Part shown: positions 601 to 54,562 of the stretch, in pieces
Position numbering within the stretch: position 1 is the stretch's first letter
How the letters are laid out: each line of letters opens with the position of its first letter
Assembly (NCBI GenBank): GCA_001781205.1
Contig: MFLE01000014.1
Coordinates: 26,107-90,106 of the forward strand
Origin: Candidatus Kaiserbacteria bacterium RIFCSPHIGHO2_02_FULL_49_34
Lineage (GTDB): Bacteria > Patescibacteriota > Minisyncoccia > Phycocordibacterales > UBA918
Length of the DNA: 64,000 bases
Reading direction: 5' to 3'
Notes under the pieces: generated by a model
What the model saw: the letters and a program-made list of their open reading frames with translations, nothing else
Told to the model about the DNA's origin: nothing
Database searches by the model: none
Position numbers and translations under genes: made by a program

Positions 601-709
601 AAAGCAGTGTTCACTAGTATTCTTTTGTCGTTCTGCAAAATAGAAACCTCCTAGTAGTGTTACATTTGATTTCTTAATTTAGTCCACCCATAGGTGTTGC
701 AAGAAATAC

Positions 710-31191: not shown

Positions 31192-31591
31192 GGGGATGAC
31201 AGGCTTTGACGGTTACGGTCCGTGCGAATGGCGCGTGTCGAAGATGGTGTTGTGCTTCGTAAAAACACACCAACCCTTAATTGCAAAAGCAATCAAGAGT
31301 CCTTACGCTCCAGCGTACGGATACGCATACGCTGCATAGGTTGAGCCGTTAGGCTCCCTCGCACGTTGCGCGTTACGCTTCGTTCGTCATATCTCGAAGC
31401 AGTGGCGTTATATCGATATGACTCGGCAGGAGCACGGCGTTCTACGCGCTCCACTTAAAAAGCAAGAACTGCACTTCGCCTTCTCGTTCACTCTCTCGAA
31501 AGCGAAGTTAAGCCCCAAGAGTGTCCTACACACGTAGACACCCTCGCACACCATAATTCGGACGAGAGTTCAATTCTCTCCATCTCCACCA
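31192..31591 (+). ncRNA. ssrA: tmRNA (SsrA)
   Basis: 5' GGGGATG pairs with 3' CATCTCC-ACCA (the G3:U wobble alanine identity element is present); T-arm-like gagagttcaattctctc. Internal tag reading frame ...SPYAPAYGYAYAA followed by TAG (ending near 31347). smpB lies 1.6 kb upstream. Confidence 0.8.
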
Positions 31592-34033: not shown

Positions 34034-34038
34034 ACTGA

Positions 34039-35412
34039 TTATTTCTTATTTGTAGCATCTGTAGGAAATATGTCATCCAACGTGCCATCACTAAATAATT
34101 CAGAATTACGCATCTCTTCTAACCAGCTCGTATCTCCAGGAATTTTTGAGATAATATCTGCATACGTATACATATTTGAATTACAGCTCTCTCGCTTGCC
34201 GTTTACAAAATGTGTATCTTTAAGCCAAAACAATTCATCACGAGTAAACCTATCTATAAAATGCGGCGAATGCGTTGTGATAAAAATCTGTACTTTGGAC
34301 GCTATGCCACGCAACACCTCTACGTACTTTTCAGTAAGTGATGGATGAATTATTGATTCAACTTCATCAAAAAGCATCACGCTCGGCATTCTATAGCTCC
34401 TTGCAGAGGTATCTAAAAAAATCCAATTTTTAAGGGTTATGAAATAGAGGAGCACTACCGTACCTGCAGAAAGAGTTGCTATGCTCTTCGGCGATGCTGG
34501 TGACTCTATGAGAACTGTGCCTTTCGTGGGGAAGGAGCCCGATGTTGCAATTTCAACTTTTGTAAGAATATTTTCGGTATAAAGTGACAAATCGGAACAA
34601 TAACGCGCAAATGCTTTCTTGTCTCTCTGAATATCAGCGAGAAGATGTATAAACTTTGCTTTACTAAAACTAGATACAGACCAATCCTGTTCTTGTTTAT
34701 TTATTCTCTGCACAACCTGCTCTTGCTCTTCCTCTCCATATTTTTCAGTGACATAATTAAATATTTTGTTCGAACTAAATTCGTTATCGTTATCATCTAC
34801 CCAATTTGTATGGATTCTTTCACTGCATTCTTTATATATATCCATCAAAAACGGATTTCTAATCTCCTTCTCAGTCTCGCGAAGCTCATCTGCATTCTCT
34901 ATATTTTTCTTGAATTCACGCTGATACACCAACTCATTACTCACATTGAGTGCACTTTCTCTCATTTGCGAGACAATACCACTTCTTCTAGTCACTTCAT
35001 TAAAATCAGACTGATCGACTTCTTTCGTAGATTTTTTTCCACTATAGAAAAGTTCATATTTCTTTGAAGATCCTGTTTTTTCTATGGAATTAATAAATAT
35101 GAAGTCAGATATTGACATATGATCTAACTTAATTTTTGCGCTCTCCTCTATGCGATAATATGTTCTGGCTTCGCCTATATTACTCAATGTAATTTTAAAA
35201 TCAGTCTTCTTTTTTCCTGGACCATATGTCACAATATTATCGAAAAAGACATCAGTAAAATCATTACGGACCTCAGCTATATGTGAAAGCGCTTTAAGAA
35301 AGTTAGTTTTTCCGCTAGAATTTCTTCCTGTTATTATATTTATTGGACCAAACTCGCTTTCCACATTAAGCAAATTCCTAAAGTTCCTTATTTCAATATT
35401 TTTGATTTTCAT
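34039..35412 (-). CDS. OLD-family / AAA_15-AAA_21-type ABC ATPase (AriA/AbiLi-like); defence-system component
   Basis: MKIKNIEIRNFRNL...Walker A GRNSSGKTN; ABC signature-like LSAGTVVLLYF; Walker B VMLFDEVESIIHP; H-loop ITTHSP. About 30% GC. Start set to ATG 35412; the track ORF runs to 35472. Confidence 0.7.
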   Translation of the reverse strand: MKIKNIEIRNFRNLLNVESEFGPINIITGRNSSGKTNFLKALSHIAEVRNDFTDVFFDNIVTYGPGKKKTDFKITLSNIGEARTYYRIEESAKIKLDHMSISDFIFINSIEKTGSSKKYELFYSGKKSTKEVDQSDFNEVTRRSGIVSQMRESALNVSNELVYQREFKKNIENADELRETEKEIRNPFLMDIYKECSERIHTNWVDDNDNEFSSNKIFNYVTEKYGEEEQEQVVQRINKQEQDWSVSSFSKAKFIHLLADIQRDKKAFARYCSDLSLYTENILTKVEIATSGSFPTKGTVLIESPASPKSIATLSAGTVVLLYFITLKNWIFLDTSARSYRMPSVMLFDEVESIIHPSLTEKYVEVLRGIASKVQIFITTHSPHFIDRFTRDELFWLKDTHFVNGKRESCNSNMYTYADIISKIPGDTSWLEEMRNSELFSDGTLDDIFPTDATNKK

Positions 35413-35553
35413 AAATTTGAGCAGACCTATGTTTATATGTATAAAATGTACTCCTATATGTAGAAAAGTCAAGTTAAATATCCATATATCAATATTATCA
35501 TTCAGAAATCTTCGTTAAACCGCTGACATGCAGCGTTTTTTGTGGCTCTTCTA

Positions 35554-38073: not shown

Positions 38074-38727
38074 TTAGTCGATGATTTGGAGATTAGTACC
38101 CACTTCGTAGAGGTCAGTACTGTTACCGCCATCAGTTGCCATCTTATTGGTGCCACCCTGGTCACCTGCAGTGTCGCCATAGGCAATACTTTCAAGACGT
38201 GCCGTCATTTCAAACGCAAGTGGTGCATTTGAACATGCGTAGCGGTAAACCATAGTCGTTGATGCAAGAGTACCGGTCGTGAGGGCTGTAGTATCCTGTG
38301 CGGGATCAAGCGGAAGTGCTGCAAGTGGCGAACCGCCAGCAATACCACCAAAATCTACAGGAATCCAACCAAGACCGGTGCCGTCTCCGTTTCCTACTGT
38401 TGTGTCAGCGCTTCCAACATAGGTTACGCCACTAACCGCTGCTCCTGTGATTGGCTTACTAAGATACACTTGCCCTGGCGCTGCATTTGGTGCTGGGAAA
38501 CAGGTGCCGAGCGATGGGTTTGGTGTCACTGTCATATACATCGCAATAGCAGTACGTACTGATGAGAGATCAGAGAGGCGCTGCACGTCACGTGCGCGGC
38601 GGAGTGTTTCCACTGGGTTAATAACAATAACGAGTATGGTCGCGAGAATGGCAATAATCGCGATCACAATGAGGAGCTCGAGCAGGGTGAAGCCCTTGGC
38701 TGTTGAAGTTGATGATGTTGAACGCAT
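38074..38727 (-). CDS. Type IV pilin / pseudopilin (prepilin with class III signal)
   Basis: KGFTLLELLIVIAIIAILATI N-methylation motif, with a Gly/Thr-rich C-terminal domain. Confidence 0.8.
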   Translation of the reverse strand: MRSTSSTSTAKGFTLLELLIVIAIIAILATILVIVINPVETLRRARDVQRLSDLSSVRTAIAMYMTVTPNPSLGTCFPAPNAAPGQVYLSKPITGAAVSGVTYVGSADTTVGNGDGTGLGWIPVDFGGIAGGSPLAALPLDPAQDTTALTTGTLASTTMVYRYACSNAPLAFEMTARLESIAYGDTAGDQGGTNKMATDGGNSTDLYEVGTNLQIID

Positions 38728-38771: not shown

Positions 38772-38809
38772 AGTATACTACACCTTTCTAAAAATAACCT
38801 GTGGATAAC
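38772..38809 (-). promoter_or_regulatory. Pilin promoter carrying the shared upstream motif
   Basis: On the coding strand: GTTATCCAC, 23 nt, TATACT (plus-strand positions 38801-38809 and 38772-38777), ~45-nt leader. Confidence 0.5.
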
Positions 38810-39097: not shown

Positions 39098-40564
39098 TTG
39101 AGGTCAGAAGATATCCACACATCGTTTTTTCGAAATGACGGTATACTAGTCGTGATGAGTTTCTTTGCGCACTTTATACGAGACGAACGGATTACCGCAC
39201 TCCACATTGCAGAAGACGCAGTGTCTGCACTTTCATTTACGCATACCACAAAACAGCTCAGTGCTATCCGCATCACGCGCATCCCCCTTGCCGCAGGCGT
39301 AATTATCGAAGGTCGCGTCGCAGACCCGACGGCACTCTCTCGCGTCTTGCGCGACCTTCGTATCAAAAACAAGGCATACCGCCACGTTGTTGTCGCGCTT
39401 CCGCATGCGGCAATTTTCACCAAAGCAGTTATCTTTCCCGAAACACTCGACGCAGAAAATGACGCCGCACGCCTCCTTGAAACAGCAAACCTTTCACTTG
39501 AGTGGAATATCCCCTTCCATCCTAACGAACGCTTCGCCGATGTTGATATCCTCCATGAACCAGTCTCAGGCATGCATATTCATGCCATTGCAGCCGAACA
39601 TGCCACCCCCTATATTACCGCACTCGAAAACGCCGGCTTCAAACTTGTTGCCCTCGAATCTGAACACGACGCTATTGCACGTGCCGCAGAGCGGGGTGCA
39701 CACGTCATCACGTCCTTTACCAGTCCCACCTACGAAAATATCCTTGCCTGCCGCGACGGCTTTGCCCTCCTCTCAAGTACTCACGCACTGGGCGCATTCC
39801 CCACAAAAACCGCACGAACAAATGCAGTGAAGCGTGCCGCAGAATTTGTCGCATCACGGTTTGGCAAGCGTCCGGTGGTTAAGGTCTTCGAGAAACTCCC
39901 CCTTCTCGAAGAAGTGAAAAAGATTATCGATGCTCGCAACGATATCTCACTCATACCACTCCTTGGTGTCGCACTCCGTGCACGTACCGCACGCCGCGAC
40001 GATGTCGCTGCAAGCCTCCTCCCTATCGGCACGGAAGAAGCCTACGAATACCAAAAACTCGAAGCATTCATCGGCGGACTTGGCACACTTACCCTCCTCA
40101 CCGCACTCATCATTACCGGCGCCGCAATCTCTGCATGGTACGGTGTCCGTACACAGCTCGCGACAATTCCTCGAGGCGACCTCTTCACCGAAACATTCTC
40201 AGTCGACACCGCACTTACGGAAGAGCGTGCAAACTACGAACGATGGAGCGCGGTTATTGCCACCGTTGGCCCCCTTGCAACCGAAGAAACTTCCTTCGCA
40301 CGCATGACCGCCTTCATTCGAACATACGCCATCAGCGGCATCTCAATCCGTGATGTATCTGCCGACGCAACCACCGTTCGTCTTGGCGGCGTCGCTCGTA
40401 GTCGAACCCACCTCAACACATTCCGCGACGCGCTCAAGAGTGCGGAAGAAGTCGCAACCGTAGAACTCCCTATTACCGACGCCGAACTCCGCGGTGACAT
40501 CCCGTTCCAAATGACCATTACCTTTAAGCCTGCTGTTTGGCAATCCTGGGTACCCAATAACTAA
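39098..40564 (+). CDS. PilM-PilN fusion protein (actin-like pilus assembly ATPase-fold domain, TM, periplasmic PilN-like domain)
   Basis: The N-terminal ~320 aa resembles PilM; TM GLGTLTLLTALIITGAAISAWY; C-terminal ~140 aa. Start could be an internal Met near 39155. Confidence 0.6.
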   Translation: MRSEDIHTSFFRNDGILVVMSFFAHFIRDERITALHIAEDAVSALSFTHTTKQLSAIRITRIPLAAGVIIEGRVADPTALSRVLRDLRIKNKAYRHVVVALPHAAIFTKAVIFPETLDAENDAARLLETANLSLEWNIPFHPNERFADVDILHEPVSGMHIHAIAAEHATPYITALENAGFKLVALESEHDAIARAAERGAHVITSFTSPTYENILACRDGFALLSSTHALGAFPTKTARTNAVKRAAEFVASRFGKRPVVKVFEKLPLLEEVKKIIDARNDISLIPLLGVALRARTARRDDVAASLLPIGTEEAYEYQKLEAFIGGLGTLTLLTALIITGAAISAWYGVRTQLATIPRGDLFTETFSVDTALTEERANYERWSAVIATVGPLATEETSFARMTAFIRTYAISGISIRDVSADATTVRLGGVARSRTHLNTFRDALKSAEEVATVELPITDAELRGDIPFQMTITFKPAVWQSWVPNN

Positions 40565-43045: not shown

Positions 43046-44320
43046 CTACTGAATGGTACCGAGGTATGGAATATTGAGAATCTTGTTGCTGTGGGGGATT
43101 TTAAGGAGTGGGGTGCCGGTGTCTTCTTCGGAACGTGTTTGCTTCGGACGGAGACTTGAGGCTCGCTCGAGGGGGAGTCCGCCGCTTCGATACATGAGTG
43201 TGTCGACAACGTCATTGAGCGTGTTGCGTTTTTCTTCAGTTTCGTCTTCCGCAGTTGTGAAGAGTTTTTGTTGCGCGGCACTCTCAAGCATTCCGTGTGT
43301 GCCGACATAGACGGCGCGGTAGCGGACGCCTTTGCGATACATGGCGTGCAAAGCTTCCTCAGCAAGCTGCATAATAGTGCCCGGATCATTTGTTGGTGAT
43401 GGACACTTTATGGTGTAAGTAACAAGTGTATGAATGTCAGGAAATGCTTTGTAGCCAATGGTTACCGCGTGCATACGAGCGTGTTGCGTGCGGAGTTTTC
43501 GGCACACGCGCTCAATGTTGCGCGAAAATTCAGTGAGGAGCGGAGCGAATGCAATGATTGGCTCCATGAATGCTTGGATACTACTGACGCTCTGCGCATT
43601 TTCTCTTGCTTCAATACCTCGCACCGAAGTGCCGCGGAGTTCATAGGCGAGTTCGACAAGTGGCTTATTGTAACGGCGTTCTATTTCGTGCGGTGCAAGC
43701 GCGAGGAGGTTGCCGATAGTAAGGATGCCCTGTTCTGCAAGTTTTTGTTCGGTCCGGCCGCCGATGCCGGGAACTTTTCGTAGCGACACACTATTGAGCA
43801 TGTCAAGATTTTCTGGTGTGACTATCGTAAGTCCTCGCGGCTTTTTAAAACCTGATGCAATTTTCGCAATCGTCATTGTTGGTCCAACACCAATGGAAAT
43901 GGTGAGTCCAAGTTTTATACAAAGTTCTTCTTGCAGTGCTTTCGCAAAACCTCGCACATCACTCCACGTAGTAACGCTCGACACATCCGCAAAACATTCA
44001 TCGATCGAACCTTCAGAGATATCTGATACATATCGCCGTACGATGCTTTTCATACGTTCTGAAAAAAGCTCATACTTACGATAGTCCGACGCAAGGAGTG
44101 CAACCTGCGGAAACTCGCGACTCAGTGCCGTCTGACTCATTGGACGCCGCACCCCGAGCGCCTTTGCCTCATACGAAATAGCCGTCACAATACCGCGCTC
44201 ACGCCCCACCGCAATCGGTTTCCCACGCCACTGCATATTGGTTGCCTGTTCACACGACGCAAAAAACGCATCGCCGTCGACGTGCATGAAAATCTTTGCG
44301 TTTTTTTGTGAGAATTGCAT
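43046..44320 (-). CDS. Y-family DNA polymerase (DinB/UmuC-like)
   Basis: MHVDGDAFFASCEQ...; typical Y-family palm, fingers and little-finger order. Confidence 0.85.
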   Translation of the reverse strand: MQFSQKNAKIFMHVDGDAFFASCEQATNMQWRGKPIAVGRERGIVTAISYEAKALGVRRPMSQTALSREFPQVALLASDYRKYELFSERMKSIVRRYVSDISEGSIDECFADVSSVTTWSDVRGFAKALQEELCIKLGLTISIGVGPTMTIAKIASGFKKPRGLTIVTPENLDMLNSVSLRKVPGIGGRTEQKLAEQGILTIGNLLALAPHEIERRYNKPLVELAYELRGTSVRGIEARENAQSVSSIQAFMEPIIAFAPLLTEFSRNIERVCRKLRTQHARMHAVTIGYKAFPDIHTLVTYTIKCPSPTNDPGTIMQLAEEALHAMYRKGVRYRAVYVGTHGMLESAAQQKLFTTAEDETEEKRNTLNDVVDTLMYRSGGLPLERASSLRPKQTRSEEDTGTPLLKIPHSNKILNIPYLGTIQ

Positions 44321-44496: not shown

Positions 44497-44871
44497 TTAG
44501 TTCTCATACTTCCGAATACAAGCAATTACCTTACCTTCTATATTCAAAGACTCCTGCGGGATAAGCTTCGGATACATCTCATTCGCTGCTTCCAGATACT
44601 GTTCGCCTCGACCGTTCTTACGTAGAAATCGTACCACATAGTCGCCATCAATTTCTGCCACCACAATATCCCCTGCGCGCACACTTCGCGTGCGCTCAAT
44701 TAAAAGATAATCACCCGACGCAACCTGCGTATCAAGAAGCGCCTCACCTTCCATTCTCATAAGATACGTCGCATCTGGATCAGCCAAAAGCCACGCCTCA
44801 AGCGTCCCCACATCACTCCCATCATCAACAGGTGAACCAAAACCAGCCATGGAGCAAGTATACCACATCAA
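44497..44871 (-). CDS. S24 peptidase-domain protein (UmuD-like, no HTH)
   Basis: A Ser-Lys dyad context (CSMAGFGSP...RFLRKNG) and the LexA/UmuD C-terminal domain pattern; located upstream of the Y-family polymerase. Confidence 0.65.
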   Translation of the reverse strand: MMWYTCSMAGFGSPVDDGSDVGTLEAWLLADPDATYLMRMEGEALLDTQVASGDYLLIERTRSVRAGDIVVAEIDGDYVVRFLRKNGRGEQYLEAANEMYPKLIPQESLNIEGKVIACIRKYEN

Positions 44872-44875
44872 AAAA

Positions 44876-44903
44876 TCCCCTGGAGGGGATTTTTAAATGA
44901 TAC
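44876..44903. terminator. Terminator after surface protein gene A
   Basis: aaaaatcccctggaggggattttt. Confidence 0.7.
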
Positions 44904-44910
44904 TTGCATT

Positions 44911-46752
44911 TTAATCAGAGGTCATGACACGGCTGCCTGCAGATCCATTACAGAAATTATTTCCAACACCACAGGAGACAGCAACGAATATACCTCCACC
45001 ATATGTGACGCCCCTCCAGTTATTTTGAGCGGCTGAGGTTCGAGATGTCCAAGTGATGCCGTCTGGTGAAGTCATGACACGGTTGCCAGCACCAGTACGT
45101 GACACTGCAACAAAGAGGTCTTGTCCATAGGTGACGGATTGCCAGCCATTGTCTGGAGCACTTGTGCTAGTTGTCCAAGTGATGCCGTCTGGTGAAGTCA
45201 TGACACGGTTGCCAGCACCCGTAACAGCAACTGCGACAAAGAGTCCGTTGCCGTAGGTGACGCCGACCCAGCTATTATCTGCAGCACTGGTTTGAGTTGT
45301 CCAGGTGATGCCGTCGGGTGAGGTCATGACGCGATCGCCGGTACCGTTACTAGACACTGCGACAAAGAGTCCGTTGCCGTAGGTGACGGAGCTCCATTGG
45401 TTAGTTGTAGCACTGGTACGGGAAGTCCAAGTGATGCCGTCGGGTGAGGTCATAACACTGTTCACCGTACTGTCGTTAGACACTGCGACAAAGAGTCCGT
45501 TGCCGTAGGTGACGCCGACCCAGCTATTATCTGCAGCACTGGTTTGAGTTGTCCAGGTGATGCCGTCGGGTGAAGTCATGACGCGATCGCCAATACCATT
45601 CCCTGCAACGGCGACGAAGAGACCATTGCCATAGGTGACGGAGCCCCAGGCATTATCTGCAGCGCTGGTTTGGGATGTCCAGGTGATGCCGTCAGGTGAG
45701 GTCATGACGCGGTTGCCGAAGCCTGTGCTTGCAACTGCGACAAAGAGTCCGTTGCCGTAGGTGACAGAGTTCCAGAAGTTATCCGCAGCGGAGACACGAG
45801 ATGTCCACTCAACGCCTGCTTGCGCCTTCGCAATCACCGCAATGGTGTTTGCTCCTGTGCAGGTACCCTTCACTCCACTTGCAGGAATAGCAATGTTCCA
45901 GTAAAGGTTTGCGGAGAGCTCGTTAGATTCGTCGGTACGGAGGAGGATGTTTCGTTTTGCTGAAGCAGGAGTATCGGTAAGAACAATTGATGTGGCATGA
46001 TCGACATCGGTGAGCGCCCACGCCTGTGTTGAAGTAGCGAGTGTACCGAGTGCGCTGCAGCCCATATTCGAACCAGAGAGCTGCACATCAGCCTTTGTGT
46101 TGCCTCGCTGTGTGATGACTGTCTCTACGTTTGTGGTTGATGATGAAACTTCACCAAGTGAACGAGTGCCGTAATCAATAACATCGGGGAGATTGAGAGC
46201 AAGAAGTGAGTTAACTTCTACTGTTGCAGAAAGAGCACCTTGTGTTGACGCAAAATCTTGAACAGTAACATATGCGGTCCAACTATCGCTTGTATAGGCA
46301 CTTGCTGCATCAGTTGCATCAATCCAGTAAGCAAGCGGCACTTCACAGTTGTAGGCGATTTCTGTGTCGGAGCCTTCGGAGTAGTTCGTGGTACAAGAAT
46401 TAATTACGTAGCAGTCGTTGTTGTCGGCGGCGCAGGTGTTGGTACTGCTTGTTTTGTGGAAGACAAGAGCGAGTGTTGATGAAGCAATATCGTTTTCTCC
46501 GTTTGCATCAGAGATTTGTCCGTTGATGTGAATAGTTCTGTCAGTACCGACGTTCGGGAGAATACCTGAGCTTGTTAAATCATCTGTGCCGTACGCGGTT
46601 GTGGCGATACGGATGGTGTCGACGGTTGGTGCAACGTTAATAATTTCTGCAGTGGTTGCGACATCGGCTGCGCCAGTGTAGCGGATGATGATTCCTACGA
46701 TGAGGAGGAATGCGACGACAATCAAGGTGCCGAATATTTTTATATTTGTCAT
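44911..46752 (-). CDS. Membrane-anchored surface protein with 8 tandem ~38-aa Asp-box-like (SPDGITWT) repeats, paralog A
   Basis: N-terminal MTNIKIFGTLIVVAFLLIVGIIIRYTGA anchor; ~300-aa Thr/Ser-rich domain; repeats GNRVMTSPDGITWTsrTSAadNnWxSVTYGNGLFVAVs. The track ORF runs to 46824. Confidence 0.7.
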   Translation of the reverse strand: MTNIKIFGTLIVVAFLLIVGIIIRYTGAADVATTAEIINVAPTVDTIRIATTAYGTDDLTSSGILPNVGTDRTIHINGQISDANGENDIASSTLALVFHKTSSTNTCAADNNDCYVINSCTTNYSEGSDTEIAYNCEVPLAYWIDATDAASAYTSDSWTAYVTVQDFASTQGALSATVEVNSLLALNLPDVIDYGTRSLGEVSSSTTNVETVITQRGNTKADVQLSGSNMGCSALGTLATSTQAWALTDVDHATSIVLTDTPASAKRNILLRTDESNELSANLYWNIAIPASGVKGTCTGANTIAVIAKAQAGVEWTSRVSAADNFWNSVTYGNGLFVAVASTGFGNRVMTSPDGITWTSQTSAADNAWGSVTYGNGLFVAVAGNGIGDRVMTSPDGITWTTQTSAADNSWVGVTYGNGLFVAVSNDSTVNSVMTSPDGITWTSRTSATTNQWSSVTYGNGLFVAVSSNGTGDRVMTSPDGITWTTQTSAADNSWVGVTYGNGLFVAVAVTGAGNRVMTSPDGITWTTSTSAPDNGWQSVTYGQDLFVAVSRTGAGNRVMTSPDGITWTSRTSAAQNNWRGVTYGGGIFVAVSCGVGNNFCNGSAGSRVMTSD

Positions 46753-46760
46753 ATGTGCAT

Positions 46761-46797
46761 AGTATACCTTGATTTGTGAAATCAGATAGTGGACAAC
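46761..46797 (-). promoter_or_regulatory. Promoter of paralog A carrying the shared motif
   Basis: On the coding strand: GTTGTCCAC, 22 nt, TATACT, 8 nt, ATG. Confidence 0.5.
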
Positions 46798-46837
46798 CTC
46801 ACAGGAACTAGCACTACCATTCATGTGTATTAAAAAA

Positions 46838-46864
46838 TCCCCTGGAGCGGGATTTTTGATTAGG
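46838..46864. terminator. Terminator after surface protein gene B
   Basis: aaaaatcccctggagcgggattttt. Confidence 0.7.
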
Positions 46865-46872
46865 CCTTATTA

Positions 46873-48693
46873 TTAATCAGAGGTCATGACGCGGTTGCCG
46901 GTGCCGTTATATGAAACTGCAACAAAGAGTCCGTTATTGTAGGTAACTGAGACCCAACCATTATTTGCGGCGCTGGTACGAGACGTCCAAGTGATGCCGT
47001 CAGGCGAGGTCATGACGCGGTTGCCGGTGCCAGTGTTAGAAACTGCTACGAAGAGGCCGTCGCCGTAGGTAACTGAATTCCAGTTATTGGCAGCAGCACT
47101 CGTGCGGGAGGTCCAAGTGATGCCGTCAGGCGAGGTCATGACGGTATCATTCGTGCCCGTGAAATCAGAAACTGCAACAAAGAGTCCGTTGCCGTAGGTG
47201 ACACTGAGCCAGTTGTTATCTACAGCACTCGTGCGGGAGGTCCAAGTGATGCCGTCTGGTGAAGTCATGACACGGTTACCAGTACCGTTATACGAAACTG
47301 CTACGAAGAGACCGTTGCCGTAGGTGACGGAGCGCCAGTTGATATCTACAGCGTTGACGCGAGACGTCCAAGTGATGCCGTCAGGCGAGGTCATGACGCG
47401 GTTGCCGGTGCCAGAGTCAGAAACTGCTACGAAGAGACCATTACCGTAGGCGACGGAGCGCCAGAAGTTGTCTGCTGCTGAAGTTTGGGATGTCCAAGTG
47501 ATACCGTCTGGTGATGTCATGACGCGGTTACCAGCACCAGAGTCAGAAACTGCTACGAAGAGACCGTTACCGTAGGCGACGGAGTTCCAGCTGTTATTTG
47601 CAGCACTCGTGCGAGACGTCCAAGTGATGCCGTCAGGCGAGGTCATGACGCGGTTGCCGGTGCCAGTGTTAGAAACTGCTACGAAGAGGCCGTCGCCGTA
47701 AGTGACGGAGCGCCAGTTGTTATCTACAGCACTCGTACGAGACGTCCACTCAATACCTGCTTGCAACTTTGCAATCACTGCAATTGTGTTTGCACCAGTA
47801 CATGTCCCCTTCACGCCAGTTGAAGGAATAGCAATGTTCCAGTAAAGGTTTGCGGAGAGCTCGTTAGATTCATCAGTACGAGGTGCAACGTTTCGTTTTG
47901 CAGGAGTGAGTGTTCCTGTAAGTATAGTTGACGAAGCGTGGTTGATATCAGTAAGCGCCCAGGCTTGTGTATTCACAGGTAGCGTACCAAGTATACTACA
48001 GCCCATAACATCACCAGAGACTTGCACATCAGCTCTTGTGTTGCCACGTTGCGTGATGACGGTTTCAATGTTTGTTGTTGATGACGAGACTTCACCAAGT
48101 GAACGAGTGCCATAATCGATAGCATCGGGGAGATTGAGAGCAAGAAGCGAGTTCACCTCGATGGTTGCTTGTAGTGCTCCTGATGTTGAAGTCAAATCAG
48201 CGACGCTGACGTATGCAGTCCAATTGTCACTAGTGAATGCCGACCCTGCATCGGTTGCATCTATCCAGTACGCGAGCGGTACTTCACAGTTGTAGGCAAT
48301 CTGTGTGTCATCGCCGTCGGCGTAATTTGTATTGCAGGTTGTAATGCGATAGCAGTCGTTGTTGTCGGCGGCACACGCACCTGTTGCTGAGGTTTTATGA
48401 AAAACGAGACTGATAGTGCTTGAGGCAATGTCATTTTCTCCGTTTGCGTCGCTCATGACACCATTGATATGAATGGTTCTATCGGTACCTACGTTCGGGA
48501 GAATACCTGAGCTTGTTAAATCATCTGTGCCATACGCAGTGGTTGCAAAACGAATCGTATCAACGGTTGGTGCGGTATTCTGAATTTCTGCAGTTGTTGC
48601 GACATCGGCTGCGCCGGTGTAGCGGATGACGATTCCTACGATGAGGAGGAATGTGACGGCGACGAGTGTGCCGAATATTTTTATATTTGTCAT
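46873..48693 (-). CDS. Membrane-anchored surface protein with 8 tandem Asp-box-like repeats, paralog B
   Basis: Near-identical N-terminus and architecture to paralog A, indicating a tandem duplication. The track ORF runs to 48762. Confidence 0.7.
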   Translation of the reverse strand: MTNIKIFGTLVAVTFLLIVGIVIRYTGAADVATTAEIQNTAPTVDTIRFATTAYGTDDLTSSGILPNVGTDRTIHINGVMSDANGENDIASSTISLVFHKTSATGACAADNNDCYRITTCNTNYADGDDTQIAYNCEVPLAYWIDATDAGSAFTSDNWTAYVSVADLTSTSGALQATIEVNSLLALNLPDAIDYGTRSLGEVSSSTTNIETVITQRGNTRADVQVSGDVMGCSILGTLPVNTQAWALTDINHASSTILTGTLTPAKRNVAPRTDESNELSANLYWNIAIPSTGVKGTCTGANTIAVIAKLQAGIEWTSRTSAVDNNWRSVTYGDGLFVAVSNTGTGNRVMTSPDGITWTSRTSAANNSWNSVAYGNGLFVAVSDSGAGNRVMTSPDGITWTSQTSAADNFWRSVAYGNGLFVAVSDSGTGNRVMTSPDGITWTSRVNAVDINWRSVTYGNGLFVAVSYNGTGNRVMTSPDGITWTSRTSAVDNNWLSVTYGNGLFVAVSDFTGTNDTVMTSPDGITWTSRTSAAANNWNSVTYGDGLFVAVSNTGTGNRVMTSPDGITWTSRTSAANNGWVSVTYNNGLFVAVSYNGTGNRVMTSD

Positions 48694-48701
48694 ATATGCA
48701 T

Positions 48702-48739
48702 AGTATATCTCCACTTTGCGAAAACACGAAGTGGATAAC
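48702..48739 (-). promoter_or_regulatory. Promoter of paralog B carrying the shared motif
   Basis: On the coding strand: GTTATCCAC, 23 nt, TATACT, 8 nt, ATG. Confidence 0.5.
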
Positions 48740-48824: not shown

Positions 48825-49424
48825 ATGGAGAATGTTGTACACAATGCGCCGCAATCGGCGCGCCGTGAGTCTTTTGGCGAAACGGCTCGCTTCGTCGCGA
48901 CAGCGATTATTGCGATTGTGCTCATTCGCACGTTTCTTGCGTCACCGTTCATCGTCGAAGGCGCGTCGATGGACGCGACCTTCCACGATAACGACTACCT
49001 TATTGTTGATAAACTTTCCTACCGCTTTATTGAACCACAGCGTGGCGATATTGTCGTCTTCCGCTACCCACACAATCCTTCAATCCATCACATCAAGCGC
49101 ATTGTTGGTATGCCTGGCGACACCATTTCCGTACACGATGGCAAGGTCACTGTTTCGAACGTACAATTTAAGGATGCTACCTTTGAGGAGACCTACGTGT
49201 TGCCTGGCAACAATCTCATGCTACTGAGCGATAGTCGCACGCTTGGCGAGAATGAATATTATTTCATGGGCGACAATCGCGACAACAGTCTCGACTCGCG
49301 CCGATATGGTGCGGTTTCGGGTGATTTTATTTCAGGACGTGTCGTGCTACGCCTCTTCCCTTTCGACATGGTAGGACTCTTCCCTGGTCGTGTTACACAC
49401 TACACGCTAACAACCTCACAATAA
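48825..49424 (+). CDS. lepB: Signal peptidase I
   Basis: GASMDATF (Ser box), KRIVGMPGDT, GDNRDNSLDSR. Confidence 0.85.
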   Translation: MENVVHNAPQSARRESFGETARFVATAIIAIVLIRTFLASPFIVEGASMDATFHDNDYLIVDKLSYRFIEPQRGDIVVFRYPHNPSIHHIKRIVGMPGDTISVHDGKVTVSNVQFKDATFEETYVLPGNNLMLLSDSRTLGENEYYFMGDNRDNSLDSRRYGAVSGDFISGRVVLRLFPFDMVGLFPGRVTHYTLTTSQ

Positions 49425-49425
49425 A

Positions 49426-50583
49426 ATGCCTATGACAAAAGCACAAGTTGTAAATCTTACGGGGCACGTGAATGCCGTCGCGCAGCACTTCGATTTCTTG
49501 CCGATTGCGGAGCACTGCGCTCGCGCTGCAGCCTTCCCCTCGCAAAAAGCACGTGCACCAAAACGCCCCACCGACCTTCCTGAGCACCCGCGATATCGCA
49601 CACTCGTCAAAGGCATTCACGACCTGTACACGCACGAGCTCAACGGCCGTCGTGGCAACCACCTCTTTTACACCTTCGATGACGCAGGCCGAGACGGCGT
49701 TACCATCACCTTCCATGCCATCGACACGACACACACGTTTGCCGACCCGCTTCTTATCCAAGTCGCCCGGTCACTCCTCTCGCAACTTGGCTATGAGCAC
49801 CGTATTCGTATCAATATGATTGGTGACAGCGAGGCAAAGCGACGTTTTATAAAAGAGCTCGCTGATTACTTTAAACGTAGTGGCTCACAAATCCCTGAAT
49901 CCATCAGAAGTATCAGCACGAAGGATGTGCTCACGGCATACCGCGCACTTCTCGCGACAAACGATGATGCAGCATACACAAGCCCCGTCTCAATCAATCA
50001 CCTTAATGAGAAAAGTCGTCGTTCGCTTCGAGAAACGCTTGATTATCTTGATTTGAGCGAGACACCATACGAGATTGACCCGCGCCTCACCGGAGATTAC
50101 GACTACCACTCAGGCTTCCTCTTCACCGTCGACGTAGCACCAACAAGGGAAACGATTACGTCCCCTTGCTCAGTCATCGGCGGCAGCTACGACGACTACG
50201 CACACAAACATCATGATGATCGCCACTCCTGTGCAAGTGTCACGTTTCGATTTACCAACCATACCGAAAAGCCACTTCCTCAAAAGAGCACGAACGGAAC
50301 TACCGTTGCCCTCGCAGCAATCGGTGCCACCCCAAAACTCTACAGTTACGGCATTCTCGACACCCTCCTTGCAGCAGGCATATCAGCGCACCACAACCCC
50401 ATCTCCCTGTCACTGAGCGATCAGCTGCGTCATGCACAGAAGAACAATGTCGACATTATCCTCATCGCCGGCACCCATGAAGCAAATCGAAAAGAAGTCA
50501 TCATACGTGACGTTCGCAAAGAAAAGCAAACAACCATTCCACTTGAAAAGCTCATAAAAGCGCTAAATAGCTGTACCTCATAA
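49426..50583 (+). CDS. Histidyl-tRNA synthetase-like class II paralog with a deleted motif-2 loop
   Basis: Aligns to HisRS (YTFDDAGRDGVTI ~ YTFEDRNGDSLTL; IGGSYDD ~ GGRYDGL; C-terminal DIILIAGTHEANRKEVIIRDV is anticodon-binding-like), but the FRxE...GRxRQF motif-2 segment is missing. Confidence 0.5.
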   Translation: MPMTKAQVVNLTGHVNAVAQHFDFLPIAEHCARAAAFPSQKARAPKRPTDLPEHPRYRTLVKGIHDLYTHELNGRRGNHLFYTFDDAGRDGVTITFHAIDTTHTFADPLLIQVARSLLSQLGYEHRIRINMIGDSEAKRRFIKELADYFKRSGSQIPESIRSISTKDVLTAYRALLATNDDAAYTSPVSINHLNEKSRRSLRETLDYLDLSETPYEIDPRLTGDYDYHSGFLFTVDVAPTRETITSPCSVIGGSYDDYAHKHHDDRHSCASVTFRFTNHTEKPLPQKSTNGTTVALAAIGATPKLYSYGILDTLLAAGISAHHNPISLSLSDQLRHAQKNNVDIILIAGTHEANRKEVIIRDVRKEKQTTIPLEKLIKALNSCTS

Positions 50584-50977: not shown

Positions 50978-51403
50978 CTATTGTATTGCGCCTGATGCTG
51001 TTATGTTTATCGAGGTGCTCGCTTGCGATGATGAGAGTGTAATGGTTACCGGATTGCTCGCTCCACTGATTGACTGGAACATAATTATCCCTGGAGTTGC
51101 AGCAATGCCTGTTGGCAACTGTTCGCTGGCTATTGTTGTGGTTGCGCCGTCTATAACCTTAAGCGATGTGTATGCGGTCGGGGTGATTTCAAGCCCAAAT
51201 ACTGCGCGGTCTTCACCAGAACGTGCACGTGAACGCACTGTTGCAAGCTCTGTGCGAATCTGCTGCGCAACAAGCTGTATATCCCCTTCGCTACCGCTTC
51301 GCGGTAGCATAACAAATACCGTACTTGCAAGAAGCCCAAGGAGTGCAATCACCAAGAGCATTTCAAGGAGGGAGAACCCACGATTTTTTGAATAAGTTTT
51401 CAT
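50978..51403 (-). CDS. Type IV pseudopilin / minor pilin
   Basis: RGFSLLEMLLVIALLGLLAS prepilin N-terminus. Confidence 0.75.
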   Translation of the reverse strand: MKTYSKNRGFSLLEMLLVIALLGLLASTVFVMLPRSGSEGDIQLVAQQIRTELATVRSRARSGEDRAVFGLEITPTAYTSLKVIDGATTTIASEQLPTGIAATPGIIMFQSISGASNPVTITLSSSQASTSINITASGAIQ

Positions 51404-51405
51404 AC

Positions 51406-52632
51406 CTAACGAACGGCACCCACAAGCTGATAAATCGGCAAGAGTACCGCAAGCGCAATCGCACCTACCACGAGTCCGAGAATAACAAGCATGATTGGCT
51501 CAATCAGTGAGGTAAGTCGCTTAAGACGCTCGTCAATGTCTCGTTCGTAGAAGTCAGCGACGGACTTGAGTGTATCGGCAAGCTTACCCGTGCGTTCACC
51601 AATCGCGAGAAGTCCAATAAAGAGCTTCGGGAAATACTGCGACTCTGCACTAAATGCGGTTGCAATTGGCTGCCCCGCCATCACTGCGTCTTTGATACGG
51701 AGGAGTGCTGCATTATATACTGCATTGCCACCTGCACGCCCGGCGAGCGTAAGTGCATCGAGGATACTCACACCACTTGGCAACAGCGTGGCGAGTGTAC
51801 GGGTAATACGTACGGTGATGGTTTTGCGAACAATATCCTTCGTGAGCGGCGCACGGACAGCGACCGTGTCGAATACATGACGCCCTCGGTCTGTTTTTAA
51901 AGCCCAGACAATCGTCGCAATGAGTGCAACGAGCACCACAGCATCGAGTGTGTAGCTGTACGTGAGTGTGTCAGAAATGCTTACCAGAAGACGTGTAATG
52001 AAGGGGAGCTCAACTTGCGCATCGGTGAAAATCCTTGAGAGACGCGGCACCATAAACACAATAACCAGGAGTGATACAAGAATCGAACCTGTCACCACCA
52101 CGAGCGGATACATGAGCGCCGAGCGCACTTTGCCGCGAAATTCATGCGAACGCTCGACATAATCAGCAAAGAGCATGAGTGTTTGATCAAGCTGTCCAGA
52201 ACGTTCACCTGCCTCGAGCATACCGAGAAACATCGGTGGGAAATGCTTTTCATACGGACGAAACGCTGCGGTGAACGAGCTGCCGCCACGAATAGAGGTA
52301 AGCACCGCACGGAGCATATCTTGCGTGATGTGCTTTTCGGTATCTTCGATAATAAGCGCAAGCGCTTCCGTTGCTGGCACACCCATACGAAGTGAGGTGG
52401 CAAGGTTTCGTGCAAAAAAGAGAACATCTTCAAGCTCAATGCGTTCAAAAAGGCGAATATCGGAAAGTCCGCGCGCATGTGCATCCTCTTCGATATTCAT
52501 CGGCTTAAGCCCTTTGCTCAAAATATGGTCAAGCACTTCCCCACGCCCCTTTGCAGAAAACACCCCTTTCACCAAAACACCCGCAGCATCATAGGCGGTG
52601 TAGTTATAGATGGTGAGTTGTTTCTTTTTCAT
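51406..52632 (-). CDS. pilC: Type IV pilus / T2SS platform protein PilC/GspF
   Basis: Two GspF repeats; typical three-TM topology. Confidence 0.85.
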   Translation of the reverse strand: MKKKQLTIYNYTAYDAAGVLVKGVFSAKGRGEVLDHILSKGLKPMNIEEDAHARGLSDIRLFERIELEDVLFFARNLATSLRMGVPATEALALIIEDTEKHITQDMLRAVLTSIRGGSSFTAAFRPYEKHFPPMFLGMLEAGERSGQLDQTLMLFADYVERSHEFRGKVRSALMYPLVVVTGSILVSLLVIVFMVPRLSRIFTDAQVELPFITRLLVSISDTLTYSYTLDAVVLVALIATIVWALKTDRGRHVFDTVAVRAPLTKDIVRKTITVRITRTLATLLPSGVSILDALTLAGRAGGNAVYNAALLRIKDAVMAGQPIATAFSAESQYFPKLFIGLLAIGERTGKLADTLKSVADFYERDIDERLKRLTSLIEPIMLVILGLVVGAIALAVLLPIYQLVGAVR

Positions 52633-52670: not shown

Positions 52671-52790
52671 ATTCTTTCAAAATTGAGTGCAGTTGTGCTG
52701 ACTGGAGGGAGCGAGTGACTGAGCCGTACCTAAGTACGGTGAAGAAATGAGTGACTGAAGTCAGTACAAATGTGCCAATTTTGGAAGAAT
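52671..52790. repeat. MITE-like repeat, family 2, copy 2 (abuts the pilB stop codon)
   Basis: attctttcaaaattgag ... ccaattttggaagaat TIRs (14/16 match); core gccGTACCtaaGTACggtga. Confidence 0.75.
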
Positions 52791-54463
52791 TACTCTTGGA
52801 CTACACGTAGGACTTCCTCAATCGTCGTAACCCCCCTCTCGACTTTCTGCAATCCATCTTCAAACATTGTTGTCATACCGCCTTTAATTGCTTGTTTACG
52901 AATGACTGCAGCACCTGTTTGTTTCTGGGCAAGTTCGCGGAGCTCGTCATTCATTGCCATAATTTCAAAGACCGCAACCTGTCCAAGGAACCCACTGCCG
53001 CCACAGACAGAACATCCTTTGCCGCGATATAGAGTTTCGGGAACCGTTTTAATATGGGTATCTCCAAGCGCCTTTTTCTGTGCGGTTATCGCGCGTTTAA
53101 TTTCGGGAGAGATTTTATACGAATAAATACAGGTTGGGCAAATTTTACGTACCAGTCGTTGCGCGACAACCGCATTTATCGTCGACGCAAGCAGGAATGG
53201 CTCGACACCCATATCAACAAGTCGAGGCAGTGCTGACGGCGCGTCGTTGGTGTGGAGTGACGAGAGCACGAGATGTCCGGTAAGCGCAGCATGCACGGCA
53301 ATATCAGCAGTCTCTTCGTCGCGGATTTCTCCCACCATGATAATGTCAGGGTTTTGACGCAAGAGTGAACGGAGTCCGTTAGCAAAGGTAATGCCAGCGC
53401 GCGCGTTGACCTGTGTTTGGTTCACGTGGGGAAATTCATACTCGATAGGATCTTCGATGGTGGTAATATTTACCTTTGGAGAATTAAGTTTATGCAAGAT
53501 AGCATAGAGGGTAGTGGTTTTACCGTGCCCCGTTGGTCCGGTGACCAAAATCATGCCGTGTGGTTTATGTACTTCTGCCTCAAGAAGTGCTTCTTGCACG
53601 GGTGCGAGACCAATGTCGCGGAACGTGATAGGGCGCGATGTTGATCGAAGCAAGCGCATTTCTGCCTTTTCACCATGAAGCACCGGCATAATGTTCACGC
53701 GAATATCAATAGTGCCTGCGGCGTCAGCATTTGCACGGAAACGTCCATCTTGCGGCGCATTATGTTCATCAACTTGGAGGTTGGCGATAACTTTGATACG
53801 TGCAACCAGTGGTGCAGAAAATGATTTCGGAAACGAGGCGATTTCTTGCATAATACCGTCGATACGGGCACGTACTACAAGCATGTTTTCGAGAGGCTCG
53901 ACATGAAGGTCGCTCGCACCAAGTGTAATAGCGTGCTCGAGCAACGCATCGAGTGTTTCAATAATTGACGCACTTTCGCCATCTTGCGCCTCGACTGCAG
54001 CACGATGTGCGTCGAACACAACTCCCTGTGCCGCGCGGTATTTTTTGAGCGCATACGCCACGGATGACATCGTCACCACGGCCGCATTTACCCACTTCCC
54101 TGTCATTGCGCGAACTTCGGCAATGGTATCCGCATCACCCGGGTCAACCATACCGAGCGTCACGGTCGTGTCGTCTTCGGCAGTAATGAATACTCTGTGC
54201 GTTTTAATAAAAGCTTGGGGCAAACGCATGAGCGCGTCGTCCTCTGTCTCGCTTCGCTTTGCATCAAAAATTGGCACTTCGTAGTATGTGGCAAGCACTT
54301 CAGCAAGGTGTGCTTCTGAAATTTTACCCAATGAAATAAGAGTATCAAACGGCGACTTCCCTTGCTTTTTCGCTTCATCACGAGCGAGAGAAAGATCATC
54401 CTTCGTAACAAGTCCCGATGCAATAAAAAGAGAGTCGAATGTTTCTTGAGAAAGGTGCATATG
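52790..54463 (-). CDS. pilB: Type IV pilus assembly ATPase PilB/GspE
   Basis: GSPII_E N-domain; Walker A VTGPTGHGKTTTLYA; Asp/His boxes. Start set to ATG 54463 with TATACT 8 nt upstream. The track ORF runs to 54532. Confidence 0.85.
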   Translation of the reverse strand, partial: HMHLSQETFDSLFIASGLVTKDDLSLARDEAKKQGKSPFDTLISLGKISEAHLAEVLATYYEVPIFDAKRSETEDDALMRLPQAFIKTHRVFITAEDDTTVTLGMVDPGDADTIAEVRAMTGKWVNAAVVTMSSVAYALKKYRAAQGVVFDAHRAAVEAQDGESASIIETLDALLEHAITLGASDLHVEPLENMLVVRARIDGIMQEIASFPKSFSAPLVARIKVIANLQVDEHNAPQDGRFRANADAAGTIDIRVNIMPVLHGEKAEMRLLRSTSRPITFRDIGLAPVQEALLEAEVHKPHGMILVTGPTGHGKTTTLYAILHKLNSPKVNITTIEDPIEYEFPHVNQTQVNARAGITFANGLRSLLRQNPDIIMVGEIRDEETADIAVHAALTGHLVLSSLHTNDAPSALPRLVDMGVEPFLLASTINAVVAQRLVRKICPTCIYSYKISPEIKRAITAQKKALGDTHIKTVPETLYRGKGCSVCGGSGFLGQVAVFEIMAMNDELRELAQKQTGAAVIRKQAIKGGMTTMFEDGLQKVERGVTTIEEVLRVVQE

Positions 54464-54562
54464 CCAACAGTATACGTCATTTTCAAAAAAACTATCTGTG
54501 GACTTCCCTCCCCGTTCGGGAAAATTTTGCAAAGTAAAAAGGCCATCCGTGGCCCTTTGTCG

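Follow-up and report, generated by a model that had tools for sequence, protein, structure and literature searches.

We analysed a window of 64,000 nt from the genome of Candidatus Kaiserbacteria bacterium RIFCSPHIGHO2_02_FULL_49_34 (GenBank assembly GCA_001781205.1, contig MFLE01000014.1, positions 26,107 to 90,106 of the forward strand), to which all coordinates refer unless another locus is named. The subjects are two adjacent paralogous open reading frames on the minus strand, i.e. the downstream gene A (44911-46752, 613 aa) and the upstream gene B (46873-48693, 606 aa), with the stop codons included in the spans. A preliminary description of this DNA had already reported two neighboring minus-strand genes of about 610 aa, and this was borne out. 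The alignment of homologues backs the start of gene B at MTNIKIF, as does a TATACT box at a distance of 8 nt in front of it. The product of gene A is identical over residues 1-613 to the NCBI hypothetical protein A3C87_00680, which belongs to a Candidatus Kaiserbacteria genome bin from groundwater. The two copies are 78% identical at the protein level and 76% at the DNA level. The duplicated unit of ~1.93 kb (44867-46797 and 46829-48739) begins ~45 nt 5′ of the ATG and includes the hairpin that follows the stop codon. A third copy was sought within the window and not found, and the local GC content of the pair equals that of the surroundings.

Both proteins start with a hydrophobic segment (residues 1-28; 46669-46752 in A and 48610-48693 in B), which is followed by an N-terminal module, from here on Nmod (residues 29-312; 45817-46668 and 47758-48609), and by a C-terminal seven-bladed beta-propeller (residues 313-613 of A, 44914-45816; residues 313-606 of B, 46876-47757). 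The propeller was assigned from the repeats and from an AlphaFold2 model that was built on a 25-sequence alignment. Units of the form W..V.Y occur seven times per protein with a spacing of 42 residues (43 once in B), and complete SPDGITW motifs occur six times in each. The seventh blade is split into an N-terminal strand, IEWTS, and a C-terminal part, NRVMTSD. The orphan strand and the incomplete last unit represent the usual 1+3 “velcro” closure, and thus the number of repeats is seven and their length is 42 aa. The count of eight that had been given before was thus wrong, and the length of ~38 aa resulted from a consensus that dropped a four-residue linker. In A, the last blade additionally has a 7-residue insertion that contains cysteines (C594, C601).

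The model has a mean predicted local distance difference test (pLDDT) score of 84.5, with values of about 90 or higher, mostly >90, from residue 313 to the end. It comprises a helix (residues 4-24), a low-confidence linker (24-36), two beta-sandwich domains (~42-180 and 185-310), and 28 strands in residues 317-605, i.e. seven four-stranded blades, the last of which is closed by strand 317-319. The proposal that the repeats form a beta-propeller is therefore supported by a high-confidence prediction of a closed, seven-bladed ring. The SPDGIT segment (e.g. residues 353-358) forms a hairpin between two strands (349-352 and 359-361), and it has the same position between strands C and D in every blade.

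The variability within the propeller is unevenly distributed. Over 51 aligned repeats, it amounts to 1.53 bits in the B-C loop and 1.63 bits in the D-A loop, and the residue after the blade-initial Trp is also among the most variable positions. The values are low for strand B (0.46 bits) and strand C (0.35 bits) and around 0.6 bits for the A-B and SPDGIT hairpins (0.60 bits for the latter). The B-C and D-A loops are also the propeller positions that differ between A and B. In the topology of four-stranded blades, these two loops make up one face of the ring, which is the usual ligand-binding face. The earlier statement that the paralogs diverge mainly in the repeat linkers thus holds inside the propeller, but not for the proteins as a whole, as Nmod is 19% divergent.

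The core of the repeats had been compared with the Asp-boxes of BNR blades. The Asp-boxes of sialidases sit between blade strands C and D, and the SPDGITW hairpin has the same position between the third and the fourth strand, so that a Ser-x-Asp-Gly-x-Thr-Trp hairpin per blade is indeed shared with the BNR repeats of sialidases and sortilins. However, SPDGITW is one residue shorter than the canonical Asp-box, a regular expression for S-x-D-x-G-x-T-W (with S/T and W/F alternatives) yielded no match in A and B, and the BNR, BNR_2, PSII_BNR, and Sortilin-Vps10 profiles did not match even the isolated propeller at E-values of up to 10. A Pfam search with A, B, and the isolated propeller at the same threshold revealed no Kelch, WD40, RCC1, PilY1, or glycoside hydrolase match. 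A and B lack the catalytic features of sialidases. The preliminary description had named the lack of a propeller or a clear match to an enzyme as outcomes that would contradict it, and neither was observed.

EPTP (PF03736) and DUF6242 (PF19755) are the sole Pfam models that score on the two proteins. For EPTP, the scores are 45.6 bits with A, 56.3 bits with B, and 63.9 bits with the B propeller alone, at a cut-off of 21. The match is partial (profile positions ~11-37 of 42), and the number of stretches that pass is zero on the full proteins and five on the isolated propeller. DUF6242 scores 31.9 bits with B and 36.7 bits with the B propeller alone (cut-off 29; profile positions 124-217 of 217), and it has no match in A. 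EPTP repeats build a seven-bladed propeller in LGI1, but EPTP is an animal family with leucine-rich repeat domains, whereas A and B are bacterial and have none. DUF6242 proteins are Bacteroidota lipoproteins, unlike A and B. The literature on DUF6242, on Kaiserbacteria surface proteins, and on S-layers with propellers in the Candidate Phyla Radiation yielded nothing specific. Neither of the models covers the whole 42-aa unit. A phmmer search against the PDB sequences retrieved no sequence relative, and the searches of PHROGs and NCBIfam gave nothing more than weak matches of unknown function and a weak “hypothetical protein” match, respectively.

Foldseek retrieved only propellers from the PDB, many of them with a probability of 1.0. 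The best seven-bladed match is Ycf48 (2xbg, 5oj5, and 8am5_S), a family that had been named for comparison in the preliminary description, with template modeling (TM) scores of 0.67-0.69 and a root-mean-square deviation (rmsd) of ~4.3 Å over ~315 columns. Other matches include Kelch domains and designed symmetric propellers. Ycf48/HCF136 and A/B share the fold, and several phage homologues of the A/B propeller are annotated as “Ycf48-like”. In contrast, the sequence identity is only 14-16%, there is no PSII_BNR match, and the host, a Kaiserbacterium, is non-photosynthetic.

The propeller occurs in many other proteins. A search of 5.8 billion proteins yielded at least 7845 significant homologues among 8000 scored candidates. 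Homologues with 40-78% identity are fused to fn3, to a type IX secretion system (T9SS) sorting domain, or to Peptidase_S74, Sipho_tail/Dit, YadA, or Big_2 domains. Peptidase_S74 is a phage tail-fiber chaperone, and an uncultured-phage protein with this domain matches the propeller at 58% identity. Phage homologues are annotated as tail fiber, gene transfer agent (GTA) host specificity protein, baseplate wedge initiator, Ycf48-like, or BNR protein. In a viral structure library, a Hokovirus protein and M1PQ47 were among the best matches (58-63% identity, rmsd 1.2-1.3 Å). The phage and giant-virus proteins have neither a signal peptide nor Nmod and carry the propeller on fiber, collagen-like, or baseplate modules. 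Bacteroidota homologues have the Por_Secre_tail domain, for which A and B gave no match. The fusions to tail-fiber, baseplate, and T9SS modules show that the propeller is a widely shared, distal, non-catalytic module that is used in binding contexts. The propeller itself is a common module. As separate observations, the Hokovirus match (BFVD entry A0A1V0SF56_2, Hokovirus HKV1) is a giant-virus collagen-repeat protein with the same propeller at 63% identity and an rmsd of 1.2 Å, and the degree to which bacteria, phages, and a eukaryotic virus have kept the 42-aa repeat is unusual.

The N-terminal module is the more unusual part. It is 81% identical between A and B, and its 284 aa contain 23-24% Ser and Thr, compared to 12-14% in PilB and the Y-family polymerase that are encoded in the same window, in agreement with the Thr/Ser-rich domain of ~300 aa that had been described. 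It comprises the two beta-sandwich domains of the model, and the alignments show six near-invariant cysteines, an N-x-x-P-x-V start, and conserved Asp/Asn clusters with the motifs DxNGxxD, NDCY, DATD, and QxGN. The cysteines and the Asp/Asn clusters would fit an extracellular, possibly metal-stabilized domain. No family match was found in Pfam and NCBIfam. Word-indexed searches yielded 21 proteins with residues 29-312 as a query and 54 matches with an 89-sequence profile, and no Saccharibacteria were among the names of the latter. When 1.84 billion cluster representatives were searched with a profile, 2111 of them matched Nmod at E ≤ 1e-3, including 698 at E ≤ 1e-30. Most are stand-alone proteins of ~300-340 aa without a Pfam match, and all named matches are from Patescibacteria (Kaiserbacteria, Uhrbacteria, Falkowbacteria, and unclassified members). 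A separate model of Nmod reached a pLDDT of 75.8. The best PDB match in a Foldseek search was the donor-strand-complemented CfaE-CfaB pilin fusion (E 4.8e-5), with a TM score of only 0.32, and further weak matches were MSCRAMMs, integrin calf domains, and RbmA. Nmod thus appears to be an undescribed, Patescibacteria-specific family, and the main interest of the locus would lie in this family, its cassette with LepB and pilus genes, and its head-swapped expansion, which are described below.

The N-termini of A and B consist of MTNIK, an 18-residue hydrophobic region, and RYTGA, with ADV as the next residues, and 24 of the first 28 residues are identical, so that they can be called near-identical, as had been stated. 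The preliminary description had taken them for membrane anchors, which is doubtful. In 115 proteins of the family, the median length of the uncharged stretch is 21 residues. Behind it, a motif of the form [NRK]-S-Q-A|D or T-G-A|A-D is strongly conserved, the small-x-small TGA|AD of A and B corresponding to SQA|D in distant relatives. After this putative cleavage site, the 115 proteins have about ten Thr/Ser-rich residues in an alternating pattern and then N-x-x-P-x-V. The gene next to B, on the plus strand and 131 nt apart in divergent orientation, encodes a signal peptidase I (LepB, Peptidase_S26, E 3e-45; 48825-49424). All LepB copies that were read, i.e. those of the window and of two further loci (L008 and L014), retain the SM, KR, and GDNR..S.DSR motifs, and lepB adjoins Nmod genes in at least eight other loci. 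Both the conservation of the small-x-small site and the proximity of the peptidase gene point to processing. The hydrophobic segment is thus probably cleaved at TGA|AD, and we infer that the neighboring LepB is the processing enzyme of both proteins. An extracellular location would fit the hydrophobic N-terminus, the six cysteines, a pilin-like composition (44-45% Gly, Ala, Ser, and Thr, compared to 43% in a pilin and 30% in PilB and the polymerase), and the lack of an enzyme match.

The pair is located inside a spread-out type IV pilus region. The window encodes a pilin (38074-38727, minus strand), a PilM-like protein (39155-40564, plus strand), a minor pilin (50978-51403), PilC (51406-52632), and PilB (52790-54460), the last three on the minus strand. 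In distant Parcubacteria, with Nmod proteins that are ~31-44% identical, the family is part of a recurrent cassette with lepB, the order of which is conserved: genes for two large proteins, an oppositely oriented lepB, and genes for a membrane protein of ~113 aa, a protein of 430-466 aa with an IG[ILV]SP start, and one to three Nmod proteins. The cassette often continues with a histidine kinase and a response regulator, followed by pilin, pilB, and pilC. lepB adjoins Nmod genes at eight loci (L008, L014, L017, L063, L064, L065, L066, and L067), and a pilin, PilB, or PilC gene is part of the Nmod cluster at four (L014, L017, L065, and L066). The cassette was seen at all eight of these loci, e.g. 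at L014 (3013-10100), L065 (2656-10954), L066 (2904-10918), L067 (757-7020), and L008 (7977-12185). The large proteins of the IG[ILV]SP type in these cassettes have C-terminal membrane anchors, and LepB is the only component with a Pfam model. The adjacency to lepB does not hold at the rpsG-rpoB locus described below or at most other Kaiserbacteria Nmod loci.

The genes between B and the pilus genes and downstream of A were also compared. Pilus genes, lepB, and a UmuD-like/polymerase pair had been reported as neighbors, and all of them are present (Peptidase_S26, Peptidase_S24, Y-family polymerase, PilC, PilB, PilM, and two pilins). However, the Peptidase_S24 gene (44497-44871) and the Y-family polymerase gene (43046-44320), both on the minus strand, are not conserved together with the family, and they were dropped as functional partners. 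An HGTP_anticodon protein is encoded on the plus strand behind lepB (49426-50583).

Within the Kaiserbacteria, the family has expanded. Loci were searched with a closer alignment and are biased towards this group. At least six Nmod loci, several of them at contig ends, were found in one reference genome, and large metagenome contigs have three to five copies each. There are at least 6-7 paralogs per genome. They have the signal peptide and Nmod in common, with identities of 62-81%, and their C-terminal heads are of different types, namely the A/B-type propeller, RCC1, a Kelch-like propeller, LamG, and Fib_succ_major. An A/B orthologue of a second Kaiserbacteria genome and a third paralog from the genome of the window (A3C87_02430) are both located between rpsL-rpsG and rpoB-rpoC (L001, 10001-11818; L005, 10001-13477), i.e. 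in a cluster of core housekeeping genes, where such an insertion is unusual. At L005, a gene for an Nmod-Fib_succ_major protein follows. Other paralogs are found beside a second pilB/pilT/pilC set (L027, L037, and L052) or beside pilD and a pilin (L020). As some paralogs are adjacent to pil genes and others are not, the pilus link is recurrent, but not universal.

The divergence pattern of A and B was analyzed separately for the two halves. The synonymous divergence (dS) is 1.10 for the Nmod region and 1.02 for the propeller region, with dN/dS values of 0.13 and 0.18, respectively, and dN is similar in both (0.145 and 0.185). The longest identical run of DNA is 48 nt. The high dS of ~1, the low dN/dS of 0.13-0.18, and the short longest identity show that the duplication is old and under purifying selection, without any sign of an active variation locus. 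The same values speak against ongoing gene conversion of the pair, and the interpretation as a surface-variation locus was abandoned. The 5′-ends are an exception. The first 28 codons have a dS of only 0.21, compared to ~1 elsewhere, and together with the upstream 45 nt (46669-46797 and 48610-48739) they are much less diverged than the remainder of the copies. The likely cause is either local gene conversion or a constraint at the nucleotide level. Four metagenome proteins (P0001, P0006, P0013, and P0100) are blade-deleted or chimeric variants. P0001 represents variants of B without one and without two blades, in frame, whereas in the chimeric ones the N-terminal part of A or an orthologue is joined to the propeller of another paralog or to some different C-terminal part. 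These variants may result from true recombination or from errors in short-read assembly.

Each of the two genes has its own terminator, as had been proposed, i.e. a hairpin with a U-run after B (46833-46857, -10.2 kcal/mol) and after A (44866-44899, -15.7 kcal/mol, z -2.6), both on the minus strand. The promoters had been described as almost identical. On the minus strand, TCCAC-N23-TATACT precedes B (48702-48735) and TCCAC-N22-TATACT precedes A (46761-46793), with 8 nt between the element and the ATG in each case. However, the TATACT-N6-8-ATG part is generic, because a TATACT-like box 6-9 nt before the ATG, without a Shine-Dalgarno motif, was found for 17 genes of the window, including housekeeping genes (e.g. 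at 23034, 25957, 37920, 44850, and 48825). Leaderless-type promoters thus seem to be usual in this genome, and TATACT-N8-ATG was dropped as a special shared promoter of A and B. As a Shine-Dalgarno sequence is lacking, the mRNA of B is also probably leaderless.

The TCCAC part is rarer. TCCAC-N20-26-TATAMT occurs six times in the window (683-718, 38772-38805, 39114-39147, 46761-46793, 48702-48735, and 54469-54502), while 0.18 occurrences are expected. It precedes A, B, the pilin gene, pilM, pilB (where TATACT is again followed by N8-ATG), and one gene for a Gmad2-domain membrane protein, and it is found upstream of nearly all Kaiserbacteria Nmod paralogs. This is compatible with a co-regulation of A and B with the pilus genes, but is no proof of it. 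An inverted repeat, CCACTT...AAGTGG, lies between TCCAC and the -10 box of B (48705-48731, minus strand; -14.1 kcal/mol, z -3.2) and is absent in A. It was therefore rejected as a conserved RNA structure. Upstream inverted repeats of other paralogs (L021, L022, L037, L046, and L047) have the form TTTTGCG..CGCAAAA, which differs from that of B. These inverted repeats could be operator sites.

From the genes and their repeat architecture, the predicted fold, the distribution of the family, the synteny, and the pattern of divergence, we consider it moderately probable that A and B are paralogous exported binding proteins of modular design, with a Patescibacteria-specific stalk and a propeller head, that they are processed by LepB, and that they differ in loops at a putative binding face. 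The Sec-type hydrophobic N-terminus would be cut, most likely at TGA|AD by the neighboring signal peptidase I, leaving a short, conserved, Thr-rich strand at the new N-terminus. The tandem beta-sandwich of Nmod, with three putative disulfides, would be the constant stalk or attachment part of the large family, and the distal seven-bladed propeller would be the ligand-binding head. Ligands would be expected to bind at the face that carries the B-C and D-A loops, which vary between the paralogs. The strands are fixed, and so are the SPDGITW hairpins, which would lie on the other side of the ring. The role would probably be attachment to a host cell or to a substrate, with a glycan or a protein as the ligand, possibly together with the type IV pilus that is encoded in the surroundings; this would agree with the life of cultivated Patescibacteria as epibionts. 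The adhesin role that had been proposed before would fit the use of the propeller in phage tail-fiber-type proteins and T9SS cargo as well as the head-swapping on Nmod. The earlier observation was real but imprecisely described, and A and B would represent a variant of the modular surface adhesins.

Several results weigh against this interpretation. The hydrophobic stretch is long (18 residues here, and still longer in the family as a whole), so that an uncleaved anchor is a possible alternative to a signal peptide. Features that could account for retention at the surface, i.e. an LPXTG motif, a lipobox, an SLH domain, or a T9SS domain, were not found in A and B, the C-termini of which end with ...NRVMTSD. 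The placement of the variable loops on one face of the propeller is a prediction from general blade topology. The link to pili is also incomplete. PilB or PilC was found within 10 kb at only ~3 of ~17 well-flanked Kaiserbacteria Nmod loci, the slot between rpsG and rpoB has no pilus genes, and homologues of the IG[ILV]SP protein and the ~113-aa membrane protein were sought in the window and the Kaiserbacteria loci and not found. In addition, uppP-like and LOG-like genes at other loci are preceded by TCCAC elements as well, so that the element was dropped as a pilus-specific one.

A precedent is found in the type IV pili of Saccharibacteria. PilX2 of Nanosynbacter lyticus TM7x is a putative adhesin of a thin type IV pilus; its hydrophobic N-terminus lacks a prepilin-peptidase site, its C-terminal part is a seven-bladed propeller, and host binding drops by half upon its deletion (ISME J 2025, PMC12206443). 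Judged by this published description, PilX2 appears to be the nearest analogue of A and B among the proteins that have been studied experimentally. In both cases, a gene of a pilus locus encodes a protein with a hydrophobic N-terminal helix that has no site for a prepilin peptidase, a high content of Gly, Ala, Ser, and Thr, and a C-terminal seven-bladed propeller, for which a lectin-like head has been proposed in TM7x. The RCC1 and LamG (L-type-lectin-like) heads on other Kaiserbacteria Nmod proteins parallel PilX2 and PilX1, respectively. However, PilX2 is described as a “lollipop” pilin fold with an RCC1 propeller, whereas A and B have a 21-residue helix, two beta-sandwiches, and a non-RCC1 propeller of 42-aa repeats. 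The PilY1/PilC tip adhesins share with A and B the architecture only, i.e. a Sec signal, a C-terminal propeller, and a gene among pilus genes. Their propeller profile did not match A and B at E-values of up to 10, and the top 50 fold matches in the PDB do not include PilY1. Furthermore, in PilY1 the propeller is conserved and the N-terminus is variable, whereas the A/B family combines a constant N-terminal module with different heads.

Signal-peptidase-linked filament systems are represented by TasA/SipW and by SipA(LepA) in streptococcal sortase-pilus islands (reviewed in PMC7900414). As at the A/B locus, a signal peptidase I gene is located beside genes for secreted surface subunits with Ig-like or beta-sandwich domains. 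The A/B locus differs in that it has no sortase, no LPXTG motif, and no match to a TasA/camelysin model, and in that the catalytic motifs of LepB are kept, whereas SipA has reportedly lost its catalytic residues. We tentatively suggest, with considerable doubt, that Nmod defines an undescribed surface system of Patescibacteria with LepB-processed subunits in or on a filament or scaffold, and that Kaiserbacteria have turned a subunit into at least 6-7 head-swapped adhesins that set the attachment of the epibiont, A and B being two specificity variants. The cassette of this system may comprise signal peptidase I, the ~113-aa membrane protein, membrane-anchored IG[ILV]SP proteins, and one to three Nmod proteins, often together with the two-component system and type IV pilus genes.

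A related, though rather unlikely explanation is that A and B are themselves pilus or filament components. Nmod could be located at the tip of a type IV pilus, like PilY1 or TM7x PilX2, or it could form a LepB-dependent polymer by donor-strand exchange, like TasA, archaeal threads, or the SipA/LepA sortase-pilus islands, with the propeller as a tip adhesin. This would fit the conserved order X1-X2-lepB-small membrane protein-IG[ILV]SP-Nmod (one to three)-(histidine kinase-response regulator)-pilin/pilB/pilC in distant Parcubacteria, in which the two or three tandem stand-alone Nmod copies resemble major and minor subunits. The segment after the putative cleavage site is alternating, yet disordered in the monomer model (pLDDT <50, residues 24-36), the upstream element is common to A, B, and the pilus genes of the window, and the composition is pilin-like. 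The precedent of TM7x PilX2 and the CfaE-CfaB match also point in this direction, but the latter is weak and no better than the matches to MSCRAMM adhesins and integrin domains. The N-terminus itself argues against a pilin: MTNIKIFGTLVAV has no Glu at +5 and lacks the G|F-x-x-x-E motif of class III signal peptides, and the N_methyl model of Pfam matches both pilins of the window, but neither A nor B. The helix is restricted to residues 4-24, i.e. 21 residues compared to ~50 in a pilin, and it is followed by a linker and beta-sandwiches instead of the “lollipop” architecture. In addition, no PilY1/PilC model matches, and many Kaiserbacteria paralogs are located away from pilus genes. An abundant S-layer-like envelope protein that tiles the cell surface and has no specific ligand would be a further possibility, but an improbable one. 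An orthologue and the third paralog occupy the rpsL-rpsG/rpoB-rpoC slot, a highly expressed neighborhood, A and B both come with a promoter-like element and a terminator hairpin of their own, the proteins are acidic and Ser/Thr-rich, and cryo-electron microscopy of groundwater cells of the Candidate Phyla Radiation (CPR) has reportedly revealed an S-layer-like envelope, the protein of which was not identified. On the other hand, no S-layer or SLH family matches, and the stand-alone Nmod proteins of other lineages have no head at all. The presence of unrelated C-terminal heads on at least 6-7 paralogs per genome is better explained by diversified binding than by a lattice.

Two further explanations are already disfavored by the results above. 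A secreted sialidase-like enzyme or another glycoside hydrolase built on a propeller is very unlikely. The SPDGITW hairpins resemble sialidase Asp-boxes and occupy the same position between strands 3 and 4, and a putative xyloglucanase (5jwz) is among the weaker Foldseek matches, but the BNR, BNR_2, glycoside hydrolase, and sialidase models fail to match at E-values of up to 10, the canonical Asp-box is absent, and no sequence relative was found in the PDB. The blades are near-identical consensus repeats without blade-specific catalytic residues, and the top structural matches (Ycf48, Kelch, and designed propellers) are non-catalytic. Hardly credible is an origin as a remnant of a prophage receptor-binding protein or of a mobile-element gene. 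The propeller is common in phage tail-fiber-type proteins and has a giant-virus counterpart with 58-63% identity, but A and B have the Sec-type N-terminus and the Patescibacteria-specific Nmod, the genes on either side of the pair include neither phage structural genes nor integrases, its GC content does not deviate, and orthologues keep their chromosomal positions.

Host recognition and attachment by ultrasmall Patescibacteria are largely unknown outside a few cultivated Saccharibacteria, and the locus offers candidates in uncultivated Parcubacteria. Useful features are the constant, lineage-specific module, which has no database model and is represented by more than 2000 protein clusters, the interchangeable heads, and the recurrent link to signal peptidase I and pili. 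If the interpretation as modular binding proteins is true, the heads could allow host or substrate specificity to be predicted from genomes, and Nmod would be a handle on the surface machinery. If it is wrong, the proteins would still be abundant, uncharacterized, and exported, and the shared 42-aa propeller would merit a family model of its own.

Three other features of the window were observed. A second, divergent PilB-like ATPase (T2SSE and MshEN domains; 17158-18888, plus strand) is encoded far from the main pilus genes, and its upstream region with a T-run, GAAA, and TATACT resembles that of pilB. A two-gene island of low GC content (0.38; 33329-35472, minus strand) encodes an AAA_15/AAA_21 ATPase and a DUF4276 protein and matches the A and B components of the PADLOC candidate defense system HEC-01; the ATPase also resembles AriA and PtuA. 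A tmRNA gene is located at 31192-31591 on the plus strand, and the tag peptide is AKAIKSPYAPAYGYAYAA.

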